A stretch of 59,886 nt of DNA from an archaeon (lineage in GTDB: Archaea > Iainarchaeota > Iainarchaeia > Iainarchaeales > 0-14-0-20-34-12). The stretch lies in the NCBI GenBank assembly GCA_038046645.1, contig JBBSVU010000005.1:1-59886 (forward strand), given 5' to 3'. Under the pieces are notes generated by a model that worked only from the letters and a program-made list of their open reading frames with translations, made no database searches and was not told the DNA's origin. A program made the position numbers and the translations under genes. Of this stretch, positions 40,791 through 52,942 are shown in pieces (positions within the stretch are counted from its first letter, which is position 1; the number at the start of each line of letters is the position of its first letter).

Positions 40791-40870
40791 TTCCTTTATA
40801 TTTGCCATACTAATTATATTATAAATTTTTTCAAATGCTTATCTATATCAAAAGGACGCAACACGCTGTT

Positions 40871-41049
40871 GGGGCTGTGGTGTAGCCTGGTCTAGCATAT
40901 AAGCTTTGGGGCCAAACTTTTCTTTTTTGAAAAGAAAAGTTTAGGCGTATCAAAAGAAAATAAGTTTTAGGATTATCAAAAGAAAACAATTTTCTTTTAG
41001 GTAACTGGCAAATTAGCTTACGACCCCGGTTCAAATCCGGGCAGCCTCA
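40871..41049 (+). tRNA. tRNA-Pro(TGG) with a 104-nt intron at 37/38 (40911-41014)
   Basis: Acceptor GGGGCTG/CAGCCTC, anticodon stem TAAGC/GCTTA, BHB helix TTTG/CAAA with 3-nt bulges, GGTTCAAATCC T-arm. Confidence 0.93.
40912..40960 (+). repeat. Dispersed A/T hairpin repeat module inside the tRNA-Pro intron
   Basis: ccaaacttttctttt-ttg-aaaagaaaagtttaggcgtatcaaaagaaaa. A close copy lies at 50061-50114. Confidence 0.8.
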
Positions 41050-41053
41050 AACC

Positions 41054-41110
41054 CCTTTTCTCTTTTTAAAGAGAAAAGGCGTTTACGGTCAAAAGAGAAA
41101 AAGAAAAGTT
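41054..41110 (+). repeat. Related hairpin repeat module directly 3' of tRNA-Pro
   Basis: ccttttctctt-ttta-aagagaaaagg, then gtcaaaagagaaaaagaaaagtt. Confidence 0.65.
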
Positions 41111-46989: not shown

Positions 46990-47787
46990 TTAACTAACAA
47001 AAATAGTCCCCATATCTTCGCCCTTAATAATCCTTAACAAAACATTTTCTGCAGAATGGTTTGCAATAACCATCTTTGCACCAGCTTCCATAACTAATTT
47101 AGCTGCATTTATTTTTGATATCATGCCGCCTTTGCCCAATTCTGATTTTCCGGAAGCCAAATCTTCAATTTCTTTTGTTATTTTGTCAACATGTTCAATT
47201 AATTTTGCATCCTTATTTTCAATTGGATTCTTATCAAACAATCCATTAGTGTTTGTAAGCATTACCAATAGTTGAGCATCAAGATGTATTGCAACTAATG
47301 CAGATAATTTGTCATTATCCCCGAAAGTTGGGCCGATTTCGTCAACAGCAACGACATCATTTTCATTAATTATTGGAATTGTTTGCTTACTAACTAATGT
47401 TAGGATAGCCTGTTTCAAATTCGCAAGTTTTTTCTTTTCTGTTAATGCATCATATGTCAAAAGTATCTGCGCAATGCTTAATCCGTATTTTTTAAATGCC
47501 CTGCCATATTCAGCCATTAATAAATGCTGGCCAATAGCTGCGCAAGCTTGCTGCATTTCAGTCGTTTTTGGCCTTTCAGTCAAGCCTAGTTCTTGCATCC
47601 CTATCCCAATTGCCCCACTTGTCACTAAAATTGATTCAATTCCTTTTTTCTTTAATTCATTTATTTGATTTGCTAATGAGTATATAAAATTCAGGTTCAA
47701 AGCATTTGAATTTTGGGTAATTGAAGTTGTGCCTACCTTTATTACAATTCTTTTTACATCCTTCAAACATTCTTTTCTTGTAATCAT
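46990..47787 (-). CDS. proB: Glutamate 5-kinase (no PUA domain)
   Basis: IVIKVGTTS, VTSGAIGIG, AAIGQ, INENDVV, FGDNDKLSA and GKGGMISKI. Confidence 0.95.
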   Translation of the reverse strand: MITRKECLKDVKRIVIKVGTTSITQNSNALNLNFIYSLANQINELKKKGIESILVTSGAIGIGMQELGLTERPKTTEMQQACAAIGQHLLMAEYGRAFKKYGLSIAQILLTYDALTEKKKLANLKQAILTLVSKQTIPIINENDVVAVDEIGPTFGDNDKLSALVAIHLDAQLLVMLTNTNGLFDKNPIENKDAKLIEHVDKITKEIEDLASGKSELGKGGMISKINAAKLVMEAGAKMVIANHSAENVLLRIIKGEDMGTIFVS

Positions 47788-47813
47788 ACCTATACCTTTG
47801 ACATAAAATATTA

Positions 47814-49067
47814 TTAACCCCTTATTTGGCCATTTCCTTCTATTATGTACTTGTAAGTAGTTAATTCCCTCACGCCCATCGGACCTCTTGCATGTATCTT
47901 TTGTGTTGAAATTCCAACTTCCATGCCTAACCCAAATTCGCCGCCATCAGTAAACCTTGTTGATGCATTAGAATAAACTGCGGCAGCATCAACATTCTTG
48001 AAGAAATATCCGATTGCTTTTTTTGATTCTGAAACTATTGCTTCAGAATGCCTTGTGCCATATTGCCTAATATGTTTAACAGCTTCTTCAACCGAAGAAA
48101 CAGTTTTTATTGAAATTATATAATCCAAATATTCTGTTTCCCAGTCTTTTTCATCTGCCAATTTCCATTTTTTCAAATATTTCCCAGCTTTTGCATCTGC
48201 CCTAATTTCACAATTTTTTGCATTTAGTTCTTTTTCCAGCAAAGGCAAGAATTTTTCAGAAATCTTTTCATGCACAATCAATGTTTCCAAAGCATTGCAT
48301 ACTGAAGGCCTTTGTGTTTTTGCATTCACAACAATTTTCACTGCTTTTTCCAAATCCGCAAATTCATCAACATAAGTATGGCATACCCCTGCACCTGCAC
48401 CAATAAATGGTACTTGAGAATTTTCCCTCATGAACTTCATTAAACCCAGGCCGCCTCTTGGAATGATTAAATCAACAGAGTCATTTGCCCTTAACATTGT
48501 TAAAACATCTTCCTTTTTTGTTGGGTCAATGCCTTGCACAGTAAATTCATCCAACCCTGCTTTTTGAATGCCTTCCTTTATTGTTTCAATAATTGCAATA
48601 TTGCTGTAAAAGGCAGTTTCATCCCCTTTCAATAAAACAACATTCCCTGATTTCAAGCATAAAGCAGCAGTATCCAATGTTACATTTGGCCTTGCTTCAT
48701 ATATTACCCCAATTACCCCAATTGGGACGCTGATTTTTTTCAAGTTTAATCCATTATTTAATGTTTTTTCTTCCAAGACCCTGCCAATAGGGTCATTAAA
48801 CCCAATTACTTCATCCAAAGCTGTAACCATTCCATTAACCCTTGAATCATTTAATTCCAAGCGGTCAAGCAAAGCATTAGTCAATCCTTTTTTCTTCCCA
48901 TTTTCCAAATCCTTTTTGTTTGCATCAAGAATTTTTTCCTTGTTTTTCAGCATGCTTTTCTTTATTTCCTGCAATGCCTTATTTTTCTGTTCTGCCGAAT
49001 AGCTCATTGCAGAATATGAAGCTTCTTTTGCTTTTTGCAATTGTTCGTTTATATTCATAAAAATCAT
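47814..49067 (-). CDS. proA: Gamma-glutamyl phosphate reductase
   Basis: VPIGVIGVIYEARPNVT, IIPRGG, SVCNALET and NASTRFTDGGEFGLG.EVGISTQK.HARGP. Confidence 0.97.
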   Translation of the reverse strand: MIFMNINEQLQKAKEASYSAMSYSAEQKNKALQEIKKSMLKNKEKILDANKKDLENGKKKGLTNALLDRLELNDSRVNGMVTALDEVIGFNDPIGRVLEEKTLNNGLNLKKISVPIGVIGVIYEARPNVTLDTAALCLKSGNVVLLKGDETAFYSNIAIIETIKEGIQKAGLDEFTVQGIDPTKKEDVLTMLRANDSVDLIIPRGGLGLMKFMRENSQVPFIGAGAGVCHTYVDEFADLEKAVKIVVNAKTQRPSVCNALETLIVHEKISEKFLPLLEKELNAKNCEIRADAKAGKYLKKWKLADEKDWETEYLDYIISIKTVSSVEEAVKHIRQYGTRHSEAIVSESKKAIGYFFKNVDAAAVYSNASTRFTDGGEFGLGMEVGISTQKIHARGPMGVRELTTYKYIIEGNGQIRG

Positions 49068-49859
49068 TTATTTGAGCTGGCTTACTTCTTTTGATTTATC
49101 AATAGCTTCCCTGATTGTTTTATTTATTATTTCTTCAATTTCAGAATTATTCAATGCAATTAATCCAGCTTCAGTTATCCCGCCTTTTGTTGCAACTTTT
49201 TCAATAAAACTTTCAGGCAGGGCTTTCTGCTGAATTAATAATTTAGCAGAGCCATAGAATGTTTGCTCAGCTAATAATAATGCTTGTTTCTCATCAAGGC
49301 CATATTCTTTAGCAGCTTTTGCGAATTTTCCAATAAAATAAGCAACAAATGCAGGCCCGCACCCAGACAACGCGGTAACAACATGCATTTTATCTTCAGA
49401 AACCTCAATCAGTTTTGCATTCTTTCCAAATAAAATGCCTAATGATTCAATATCTTTCCTTGCGGCATTTTTCCCAAAGCAGTATGCCCCGGCCATTTCC
49501 CCTACTATCAATGCAAGATTTGGCATTACCCTGATTATTTTTGCAATAACCTTAGAATCATAAAAAGATGTTTCTAAACCAGCTGCAACAGTTACAATGG
49601 TTTTTTTCAAATCACAGGATTCTTTTATCTCTTCAAGCACAGATTTCATGTCCTGCGGCTTTACCGCCAATATAATAACATCGCAATTCTTTGCCACATC
49701 AGCATTTTTCCTTGAAACATTTATGCTTTTTTTTGCAAGTTCCCCCAAGGAACAATTTTTATCCGAAACATAAATATCAGCTTTAGCTATGCCTGAATTA
49801 ATTAAATTGTCCAATATTGCACTGCCCAAATGCCCGCAACCAATTATTCCATATCTCAT
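49068..49859 (-). CDS. proC: Pyrroline-5-carboxylate reductase
   Basis: IIGCGHLG, LAVKPQ, IRVMPN, LSGCGPAF and VATKGGIT. Confidence 0.95.
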   Translation of the reverse strand: MRYGIIGCGHLGSAILDNLINSGIAKADIYVSDKNCSLGELAKKSINVSRKNADVAKNCDVIILAVKPQDMKSVLEEIKESCDLKKTIVTVAAGLETSFYDSKVIAKIIRVMPNLALIVGEMAGAYCFGKNAARKDIESLGILFGKNAKLIEVSEDKMHVVTALSGCGPAFVAYFIGKFAKAAKEYGLDEKQALLLAEQTFYGSAKLLIQQKALPESFIEKVATKGGITEAGLIALNNSEIEEIINKTIREAIDKSKEVSQLK

Positions 49860-50018: not shown

Positions 50019-50312
50019 TGGGGTTGCTGGGATTTGAACCCAGATCAGCAGGTACCTTCCCCAAGCCTTTTTCTTTCTTAAAAGAAAAAGTCTAGGGCTT
50101 ATCCAAAAAGAAAGAACTCCCTTCTTTTTACTACCTGCTATTCATCATTGTTTCTTGCGAAACTCTGCGCTCCAATCGAATATGCCCTAGAGAAAATGTG
50201 ATTAATTATAACCAGCTTCTTTTCTCTTACAAACCTATTTTCTCTTTTCTTATAAAGAAAAGAGAAAACGGTGACTGGAGCCTGCTGTGCTGCCGGGTTA
50301 CACCACAACCCC
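50019..50312 (-). tRNA. tRNA-Trp(CCA) with a 221-nt intron at 37/38 (50054-50274)
   Basis: 5' exon GGGGTTGTGGTGTAACCCGGCAGCACAGCAGG-CTCCAG, 3' exon ACCTGCTGATCTGGGTTCAAATCCCAGCAACCCCA. The BHB is imperfect (CTCC/GAAG). Confidence 0.92.
50091..50191 (-). ncRNA. Intron-encoded box C/D guide RNA (partial)
   Basis: Guide GATTGGAGCG plus D'-like CAGA, GTTTC-GCAA-GAAAC hairpin, C' box ATGATGA, guide AGCAGGTA, closed by a TCTAGGGC/GCCCTAGA stem. Confidence 0.75.
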
Positions 50313-50374
50313 ATTACTTCCTTTCTGTAACCTAATTAGATGCCTAAAATCATTTTTATACGTTGCTATTTGTT

Positions 50375-52261: not shown

Positions 52262-52942
52262 TTATTTCGGTTTTCCAAAAAAAGCGCTAAGCAATGCGCA
52301 GCATTCCTTTTCAGTTATTAATGATCTGTTTATCAAGCCTTTGAAAGAATCAATTACAGCTTTTTTATTGTCCAAATTGCTTCTCGCATTAACCATTGCT
52401 GTGAATTTTTTCAAAAGAATCTGCCTTGTTTTTTTGCCGGCAGTTTTGAATTTGGATTTTTTCTGTGCCAAGAAAATCTGCGAGAATAAAACAATGGCAG
52501 CATGCGATACATTTAATGTTTTATATTCCTTGCTTGTTGGAATATGCACAAGGAGATCACATTGCTGTATCTCTTCATTGTTCAGGCCAGAACTTTCCCT
52601 TCCCAAAACAATTGCTACTTTTGCATCAGAATTTGAGAATCTTTTTGCAAATTGCTGAACCGAAACAGCATTCCTGAACATGGTGTTAGACCTAGTTGTT
52701 TTTGCAGAGGTAGCAGCCGAATAATCTGCATCTTTTAATGCTTCCCCTATTGTTTTGACTATTTTCGCTTTTTCAAGGATGTCCTGTGCATGCACTGCCC
52801 GGCTTCTTGCCTTGTCGGTCAAATGATCTACTAGGGGATTTACCAATATTAAATCGTAAATTGCAAAATTTTTCATTGCCCTTGCAATAAGCCCTAAATT
52901 TTCCTCATATTCTGGTTCGACCAGTATTACGATAGTTTTCAT
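52262..52942 (-). CDS. trmJ: TrmJ/LasT-family SPOUT RNA methyltransferase
   Basis: ILVEPEYEENLGLIARAMKNF, VLGRESSGLNNEE and TLNVSHA. Confidence 0.88.
   Translation of the reverse strand: MKTIVILVEPEYEENLGLIARAMKNFAIYDLILVNPLVDHLTDKARSRAVHAQDILEKAKIVKTIGEALKDADYSAATSAKTTRSNTMFRNAVSVQQFAKRFSNSDAKVAIVLGRESSGLNNEEIQQCDLLVHIPTSKEYKTLNVSHAAIVLFSQIFLAQKKSKFKTAGKKTRQILLKKFTAMVNARSNLDNKKAVIDSFKGLINRSLITEKECCALLSAFFGKPK

Follow-up and report, generated by a model that had tools for sequence, protein, structure and literature searches.

The intron of the tryptophan transfer RNA precursor (pre-tRNA-Trp) in euryarchaea contains a box C/D guide that directs 2'-O-methylation at positions 34 and 39 (Cm34 and Um39) (PMC4090602, PMC7994747). 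Haloferax volcanii and the Pyrococcus guide sR50 are the examples given (Clouet d'Orval 2001 and Singh 2004, as cited in PMC4090602 and PMC7994747). A related case is the 66-nucleotide (nt) intron RNA of elongator tRNA-Met in Nanoarchaeum equitans, which combines one box C/box D pair with a GC hairpin and has been proposed, not shown, to be a methylation guide (Randau 2012, PMC3491384). Half-mer box C/D ribonucleoproteins (RNPs) have also been engineered for crystallography (Ye 2009; Xue 2010; both as described in PMC6239191). Here, we describe the tRNA-Trp intron encoded on a 59,886-nt stretch of archaeal DNA (contig JBBSVU010000005.1 of assembly GCA_038046645.1, positions 1 to 59,886; hereafter the window) from a DPANN lineage labeled Diapherotrites. 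This intron probably contains a natural guide with a single kink-turn (K-turn) that would direct Cm34 on its own precursor. The intron lies at position 37/38 and is predicted to be removed by the splicing endonuclease.

The locus resembles the euryarchaeal tRNA-Trp guide in its host gene, its intron position at 37/38, its antisense segments to the 34 and 39 regions, and its placement of C34 at the fifth nucleotide from the box (the N+5 register). It differs in having no terminal boxes C and D and therefore only one K-turn, in closing boxes D' and C' with a co-varying hairpin rather than a short loop, in lacking a box D at the arm facing position 39, in its length of 221 nt against an archaeal median of 65 nt (PMC4090602), and in its DPANN host. 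Like the N. equitans intron RNA, it belongs to a DPANN tRNA intron and combines one box pair of the C/D type with a stable hairpin. The tRNA is a different one, however, and two arms co-vary with the precursor here, while the description of the N. equitans RNA gives no target register or comparative evidence (PMC3491384). Like the half-mer RNPs, as far as PMC6239191 describes them, the intron has one K-turn and one guide per RNA, and a Nop5 dimer would be able to hold two such RNAs. In contrast to those laboratory constructs with full-length Nop5, it is natural, lies inside its own substrate, and is accompanied by a Nop5 without the fibrillarin-binding domain.

A guide-like module in the tRNA-Trp intron

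ARAGORN run with long introns allowed (-i300) calls a tRNA-Trp(CCA) gene with a normal cloverleaf on the minus strand at 50312-50019 (c[50018,50313]). The call contains the very long 221-nt intron that a preliminary description, made from the sequence alone, had recognized, and the gene is missed by a default ARAGORN scan. The 5' exon (50275..50312, minus strand) covers tRNA positions 1-37 with one extra D-loop nucleotide, and the 3' exon (50019..50053, minus strand) covers positions 38-73. The same-genus relative G001 has exactly the same exons, whereas its intron shows 73% identity where it can be aligned and has insertions and deletions outside the guide module. The intron (50054..50274, minus strand) lies between CUCCAG, ending in G37, and ACCUGC, beginning with A38, which is the canonical position 37/38. 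The predicted spliced anticodon loop, CUCCAGA (7 nt), equals that of the intronless tRNA-Trp genes of relatives. Archaeal tRNA introns have a quoted range of 11-129 nt (2014 review, PMC4090602), well below the length of this one. The assembly (1.17 Mb, 25 contigs, 35.5% G+C, 89% complete) contains a single tRNA-Trp gene. Rfam returned zero matches at its gathering score at the tRNA-Trp locus and in the window, and the matches seen at an E-value threshold were sub-threshold noise (tRNA, 18.4 bits; sR3, 12 bits).

The core of the intron is a run of short elements on the minus strand. Guide 1, GAUUGGAGC (DNA GATTGGAGC; 50169..50177), is antisense to G31-G37 and intron nt 1-2, with one G.U pair. 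Box D', CAGA (50164..50167; consensus CNGA in the 15 carrier genomes described below), starts one nucleotide past guide 1, and C34 faces the fifth nucleotide upstream of it. The capped stem GUUUC-GCAA-GAAAC (50150..50163) leads to box C', AAUGAUGA (DNA AATGATGA; 50142..50149), which reads as a 3-nt bulge followed by tandem GA steps (AAU-GA-U-GA; consensus RAUGAYGA). A second antisense arm, UAGCAGGUA (DNA (T)AGCAGGTA; 50132..50140), begins two nucleotides after box C' and pairs with the last intron nucleotide and A38-G45. It is followed by the A-rich hairpin AAAAAGAAGGGAGTTCTTTCTTTTT (50129-50105), the start of hairpin 3, whose first letters, AAAA, occupy the place of box D (positions 13-16 after C'). 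No RUGAUGA that could serve as box C is present upstream of guide 1 in this intron. Every motif named in the preliminary description (the guide, CAGA, the GTTTC-GCAA-GAAAC hairpin, C', the second guide, the A-rich hairpin, and a pair of 8-base-pair [bp] stem strands) was thus found in its place, as were the position of C34, the missing outer box C, and the A-rich hairpin standing where box D should be.

In all 15 carrier genomes, the GA of box D' abuts the stem, and the other strand runs from the stem through the RAU bulge to GA, Y, and GA, a layout in which tandem sheared G.A pairs are expected. Because all 15 hairpins differ in sequence yet pair perfectly, the D'/C' pair is predicted to be a K-turn with a capped canonical stem rather than a K-loop. 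The preliminary proposal of a single-K-loop guide for Cm34 thus keeps its one box pair and its C34 register, both of which are real and conserved, while the K-loop itself is replaced.

Phylogenetic distribution and covariation of the module

We searched 215 genomes of the phylum with the strict pattern TGGAGN{1,2}CNGAGN{2,22}CRATGAYGA and used the reversed pattern as a control. The strict pattern matched 15 genomes and the reversed one none, a frequency far above chance. All 15 matches lie inside tRNA-Trp introns, and the carriers represent 9 genera and 7 families of this order, so that the guide motifs are indeed kept in the Trp introns of relatives, a comparison that the preliminary description had put forward. 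The carrier introns measure 68, 82, 94, 105, 145, 152, 167, 169, 179, 183, 194, 205, 216, 221, and 234 nt. A looser pattern gave 41 matches in the order. Its extra matches are coding-like and not at tRNA-Trp loci, and the additional genomes were set aside (G003, G014, G016, G104, G138, G069, G033, G153, G158, G156, and G108). Two further "K-turn hairpin" matches in the genome studied here, on contigs C9 and C20, fall within protein-coding sequence.

The N+5 register on C34 holds in 14 of the 15 genomes, while the spacer letters vary (CG, CA, CU, or UU). Boxes D' and C' are joined in every carrier by a perfectly paired hairpin of 2-7 bp, and no two of the 15 carriers share its sequence. Together, the 15 hairpins contain 71 bp, whereas 2000 shuffles gave 9.9 bp on average and never more than 28. 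When the guide and target segments of 14 genomes are aligned without gaps, the guide-target covariation score is 0.270, against 0.144 ± 0.016 for shuffled pairings (0 of 500 reach 0.270); sliding the register yields 0.069 at best. Compensatory changes occur in the pairs of intron nt +1, -1, and -2 and of tRNA position 43. The pair between intron nt +1 and guide 1 is UA in eight sequences and AU in six and is never unpaired, the position 43 pair is GC in 10 and AU in 4, and the pair at intron nt -1 is GC in eight, AU in three, and UA in two. Both arms co-vary with nucleotides at the intron ends, which indicates that the target is the unspliced pre-tRNA and not the mature tRNA.

These data also bear on whether the module has a function at all. 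The absence of boxes C and D, together with the loss of the intron altogether in many relatives (tRNA-Trp is intronless in G005, G008, G023, G027, G042, and G043), would fit a formerly complete C/D intron that has lost its function and is decaying by drift. However, compensatory changes across the seven families preserve the pairing of the stem and of both arms, while the flanking intron sequence outside the module cannot be aligned. This pattern points to purifying selection, and the 15 different hairpins argue against a recent transfer of a single copy. We thus regard decay as very improbable.

Terminal boxes and the second antisense arm

Terminal boxes C and D are absent from all 15 introns, including those of 68, 82, and 94 nt. 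The place of box D reads AAAA, CAAA, AGAA, UGUU, AACA, AACG, AAUA, AAUG (twice), AGCC (twice), AAUU, AUGA (twice), and CUGC. The shortest introns have just 10-13 nt before guide 1, most of which are part of the target or the guide, too few to accommodate a box C. Hairpins 3 and 4 are missing from G001, yet its box D place reads CAAA. Since G001 and all short introns are also without box D, the one-K-turn layout is ancestral to these families and older than the repeat insertion. This order of events does not support the preliminary suggestion that a position-39 guide had been disabled or rewired by inserted repeats. The terminal boxes that define the canonical two-K-turn C/D class were looked for and are missing, so the intron guide is not a member of that class; it plausibly works like one half of it.

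The second arm has a conserved register of its own. The nucleotide facing C39 is the 8th after box C' in 12 of the 15 genomes and the 9th in the other 3, and the 8th corresponds to the target place of a canonical 12-nt spacer. The arm therefore seems to preserve the register of an ancestral position-39 guide. It could also be active today, with C39 methylated at a distance measured from box C' (the eighth guide nucleotide), a Nop5 dimer bridging two precursors, and no need for box D. The canonical position of the nucleotide facing C39 and the covariation of the second arm with its target would both fit such activity. The conserved register may simply come from a two-K-turn ancestor, and to our knowledge, every C/D RNP that methylates has a box D or D' beside the guide. 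We consider methylation by both arms improbable.

Two predicted, exclusive folds of the precursor

The guide-target helices and the K-turn hairpin are part of the minimum-energy fold predicted by RNAfold for 13 of the 15 precursors; the present one is among them, at -112.8 kcal/mol. A fold constrained to contain the anticodon stem and the central helix of the bulge-helix-bulge (BHB) is less stable by 6-18 kcal/mol and scores -98.3 kcal/mol here. In all relatives, GGAG or GAAG stands 3-6 nt before the 3' splice site, the canonical BHB register. The central helix is perfect (CUCC/GGAG) in 9 of the 15 genomes, while this genome, G001, and G097 have GAAG with a C34.A mismatch. The GAAG strand of the present intron (50056..50059, minus strand) pairs with C32-C35 around that mismatch, and the outer intron helix is weak, with 2 bp plus a mismatch, so the BHB is as imperfect as first described. 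The CUCC of the anticodon loop can pair with the GGAG of guide 1 or with the GGAG/GAAG near the 3' end of the intron. Because both folds use the same CUCC, the methylation-type and splicing-type structures exclude each other, and the guide fold and the splicing fold of the euryarchaeal tRNA-Trp precursor likewise compete. Mutually exclusive folds imply that the precursor would be remodeled between methylation and splicing.

We propose the following mechanism. The conserved core would act as half of a box C/D guide, in which box D' (CNGA), the capped hairpin, and box C' (RAU-GA-Y-GA) build one K-turn, and the two arms flanking it would pair with both strands of the pre-tRNA's own anticodon stem-loop. 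L7Ae, Nop5, and fibrillarin would assemble on the K-turn and form Cm34 on the unspliced precursor, acting either in cis or across a pair of precursors joined through a Nop5 dimer. The downstream arm would most likely be a clamp, which would let guide 1 pair by sequestering the 3' strand of the anticodon stem. Later, the CUCC bound to guide 1 would re-pair with the GAAG at the 3' end of the intron and create the BHB. The remainder of the 221 nt would be filler, made of two oppositely oriented copies of a three-tract hairpin module. If the core really makes Cm34, it would be the minimal natural C/D guide, and the 139-nt precursor of G022 would offer a compact system for ordering the methylation and splicing of one RNA.

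Presumed protein partners and other box C/D candidates

The genome contains genes for fibrillarin, Nop5, L7Ae, and the splicing endonuclease EndA, the four that the preliminary description had singled out for a genome check. The fibrillarin gene is intact (G000:C14:26483-27172) and adjoins a Nop-domain gene (C14:27180-27971), and L7Ae is encoded at C10:10858-11112. A single EndA gene (C21:17092-17622) specifies a protein of 171 amino acids (aa) with an N and a C domain. This protein aligns colinearly, without an inserted loop, with the strict alpha4 enzyme of Methanocaldococcus jannaschii (PDB 1a79) and keeps the catalytic Tyr and His, with Thr at the position of the M. jannaschii catalytic Lys. 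Of 20 relatives, 17 resemble this genome in having an alpha-type subunit of 166-197 aa as their sole EndA, and more than one EndA gene was seen in no genome of the order, which also holds for the closed genomes G004 and G017. DPANN EndAs of the alpha4 type that carry an L3 loop have been linked with disrupted tRNA genes (PMC5829648). The preliminary description had deduced an endonuclease of relaxed specificity from the imperfect BHB; for the present EndA, in which no such loop was evident, relaxed specificity is a conjecture.

Several observations weigh against a Cm34 guide. The Nop5 protein has 264 aa and aligns only to residues 123-372 of Pyrococcus furiosus Nop5; it consists of the coiled-coil and C-terminal domains, without the N-terminal domain, which is the part that binds fibrillarin (PMC6239191). 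The same short form occurs in all 30 relatives searched. The profile PF08156 (NOP5NT) is too insensitive for finding a separate N-terminal domain, as it misses even control archaea, and a Nop5-fibrillarin fusion, considered for the long Nop5 frames of some relatives, was rejected, as the extensions are K/R/D-rich C-terminal tails. The many relatives with an intronless tRNA-Trp show that the guide is dispensable in the order. In G012, the register on C34 is shifted by one, and a mere clamp leaves the conserved register of the second arm unexplained. Finally, Tran et al. (2003, EMBO J) reportedly found in vitro that efficient archaeal C/D methylation needs both box pairs, juxtaposed. The predicted guide is naturally selected, sits in its own substrate, has one K-turn, and is conserved by compensatory change across seven families, and it departs from that two-box-pair rule of in vitro work.

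Part of this evidence would suit a structural or regulatory element that acts without methylation. L7Ae, with or without Nop5, would bind the K-turn, and the arms would lock the anticodon region, either chaperoning the folding of the pre-tRNA or gating splicing by competing with the BHB fold. A Nop5 without its fibrillarin-binding domain across the order and the absent boxes C and D are compatible with such a role, and a guide fold that beats the BHB fold by 6-18 kcal/mol must influence splicing. On the other hand, a simple clamp would not need the exact N+5 spacing to C34 that 14 of the 15 genomes keep, and an intact fibrillarin gene adjoins nop5. A role without methylation is therefore rather unlikely in our judgment, although it is less so than decay. 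If no Cm34 is made, the module, with its K-turn and antisense arms, would serve as a device for controlling how the pre-tRNA folds.

The shortened Nop5 may also belong to a C/D machine that is built differently in the whole order, combining a Nop5 without the fibrillarin-docking domain, a single capped K-turn, and a box-D-less arm that directs Cm39 from box C' through a Nop5 dimer bridging two precursors. The odds of this are low, but if Cm39 were specified from box C', it would represent RNA-guided methylation without a box D.

Candidate C/D RNAs elsewhere in the genome count in favor of a Cm34 guide. A RUGAUGA...CUGA regular-expression census of the genome gave 46 matches against 3 in the control. 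Most of them lie in genes, and two resemble small RNAs (sRNAs). The first candidate, at C21:7663, is intergenic-looking and 52 nt long, with two box pairs and 12-nt spacers. The second, at C1:79936-80004 (69 nt), is likewise intergenic-looking and has box C, D' (CCGA), an internal D'-C' hairpin, a degenerate C', box D, and a 5-bp terminal stem. From these candidate two-K-turn sRNAs, the C/D machinery appears to be in use in this genome. Target searches with the guides of the two candidates are too noisy in an AT-rich genome. The D' guide of the C1 candidate is complementary, with one mismatch, to the D arm of the neighboring tRNA-Ala.

A repeated hairpin module

Outside its core, the Trp intron is built from a repeat that is common in this genome. 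About 90 hairpins have one all-pyrimidine and one all-purine arm, compared with 6 in locally shuffled sequence, and most of them are located directly beside tRNA genes or inside tRNA introns. The repeat is a three-tract module in which a pyrimidine arm, a loop, and a purine arm lead into a TAGG-type linker and then into a purine tract, the mirror image of the purine arm. All long tRNA introns (86-221 nt; Trp, Pro [two], Gly, Tyr, Asp, Ser [two], Thr, and Ala) begin with such a module. Across nine long introns, the mirror score averages 12.3 for an intron's own tract but 7.7 when the tract comes from another intron; direct repeats score 10.0. The closest published analogy, as cited in PMC4090602, is the transposed tRNA introns of Thermoproteales. 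Hairpins 1-4 of the Trp intron share the layout of the three-tract pyrimidine/purine repeats of DPANN tRNA introns and flanks. In contrast to the other introns with such repeats, two opposite copies flank an apparently functional core here.

The sense copy (50189..50268, minus strand) comprises a pyrimidine/purine hairpin (50268-50238), the linker UAGGUUUGU, and a mirror purine tract (50228-50216), with which hairpin 2 also begins. A homologous block is found in G001, G059, G097, and G100. The inverted copy (50067..50129, minus strand; 63 nt) consists of hairpin 3, the linker GGAUAAGCCCUAGA, and hairpin 4 and is absent from G001. Read as its reverse complement, it shows a pyrimidine arm, a purine arm, TCTAGGGCTTATCC, and the mirror tract, and each tract has its counterpart in the tRNA-Gly(UCC) intron module. 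In G001 and the f27 relatives, the second arm is followed by only 31-34 nt; the inverted copy would therefore most simply be an insertion in this lineage after its split from the sister species.

The 8-bp stem forms between UCUAGGGC/TCTAGGGC (50191-50184) and GCCCTAGA/GCCCUAGA (50098-50091), the latter in the linker of the inverted module. Its halves sit in the 14-nt block TCTAGGGCATATTC and the reverse complement block TCTAGGGCTTATCC, which are identical at 12 of 14 positions. The stem had been described as closing the guide domain; it can form, but it is not conserved, being absent in G001, and we interpret it as a side effect of having two inverted linker copies and not as a replacement of the C/D stem.

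The core and the hairpin module are separable across the order. The K-turn core occurs without the three-tract module in G022, G015, G092, and G019. Conversely, the 48-nt tRNA-Trp intron of G052 (L121, G052:C22:15080-15330) is the module alone, UUUUUUCCC-UUCG-GGGAAAAAA-CCCUUGGG-AAAAAGAGGGG, with no K-turn guide. The Trp intron thus displays a functional core, as we read it, and a spreading hairpin module side by side, which bears on how archaeal tRNA introns grow.

Other copies of the module were seen at neighboring and distant tRNA genes. ARAGORN calls a tRNA-Pro(GGG) in the window (40870-41080) with a 102-nt intron of the same module (hairpins at 40917-40939 and 40978-40998), and a further pyrimidine/purine hairpin lies right after this gene (41053-41080). 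The 58 nt directly downstream of tRNA-Asn (C6:60730-60787) are 91% identical to nt 3-58 of the tRNA-Trp intron, and the same module copy therefore serves as the start of an intron in one gene and as a trailer in the other.

Genomic context

Upstream of the tRNA-Trp gene by about 40-50 nt lies TATAAAAATG (50351..50360, minus strand), a putative TATA box, and this TATA-like block is also kept in G001. The predicted exon-exon junction of the spliced tRNA reads ...GGCUCCAG/ACCUGCUG..., and that of a circular intron would read ...GGGGAAGGU/UCACCGUU....

A gene for a SpoU-family RNA 2'-O-methyltransferase (52262-52942; 226 aa) lies 2 kb from tRNA-Trp and possibly encodes a TrmJ-like, protein-only tRNA methylase. 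Directly downstream of tRNA-Trp, a proB/proA/proC-like row (46990-49859) encodes an amino acid kinase, an aldehyde dehydrogenase, and a pyrroline-5-carboxylate reductase. The best relatives found for the ProC protein outside the genus are bacterial (32-37% identity), which hints at an acquisition from bacteria.

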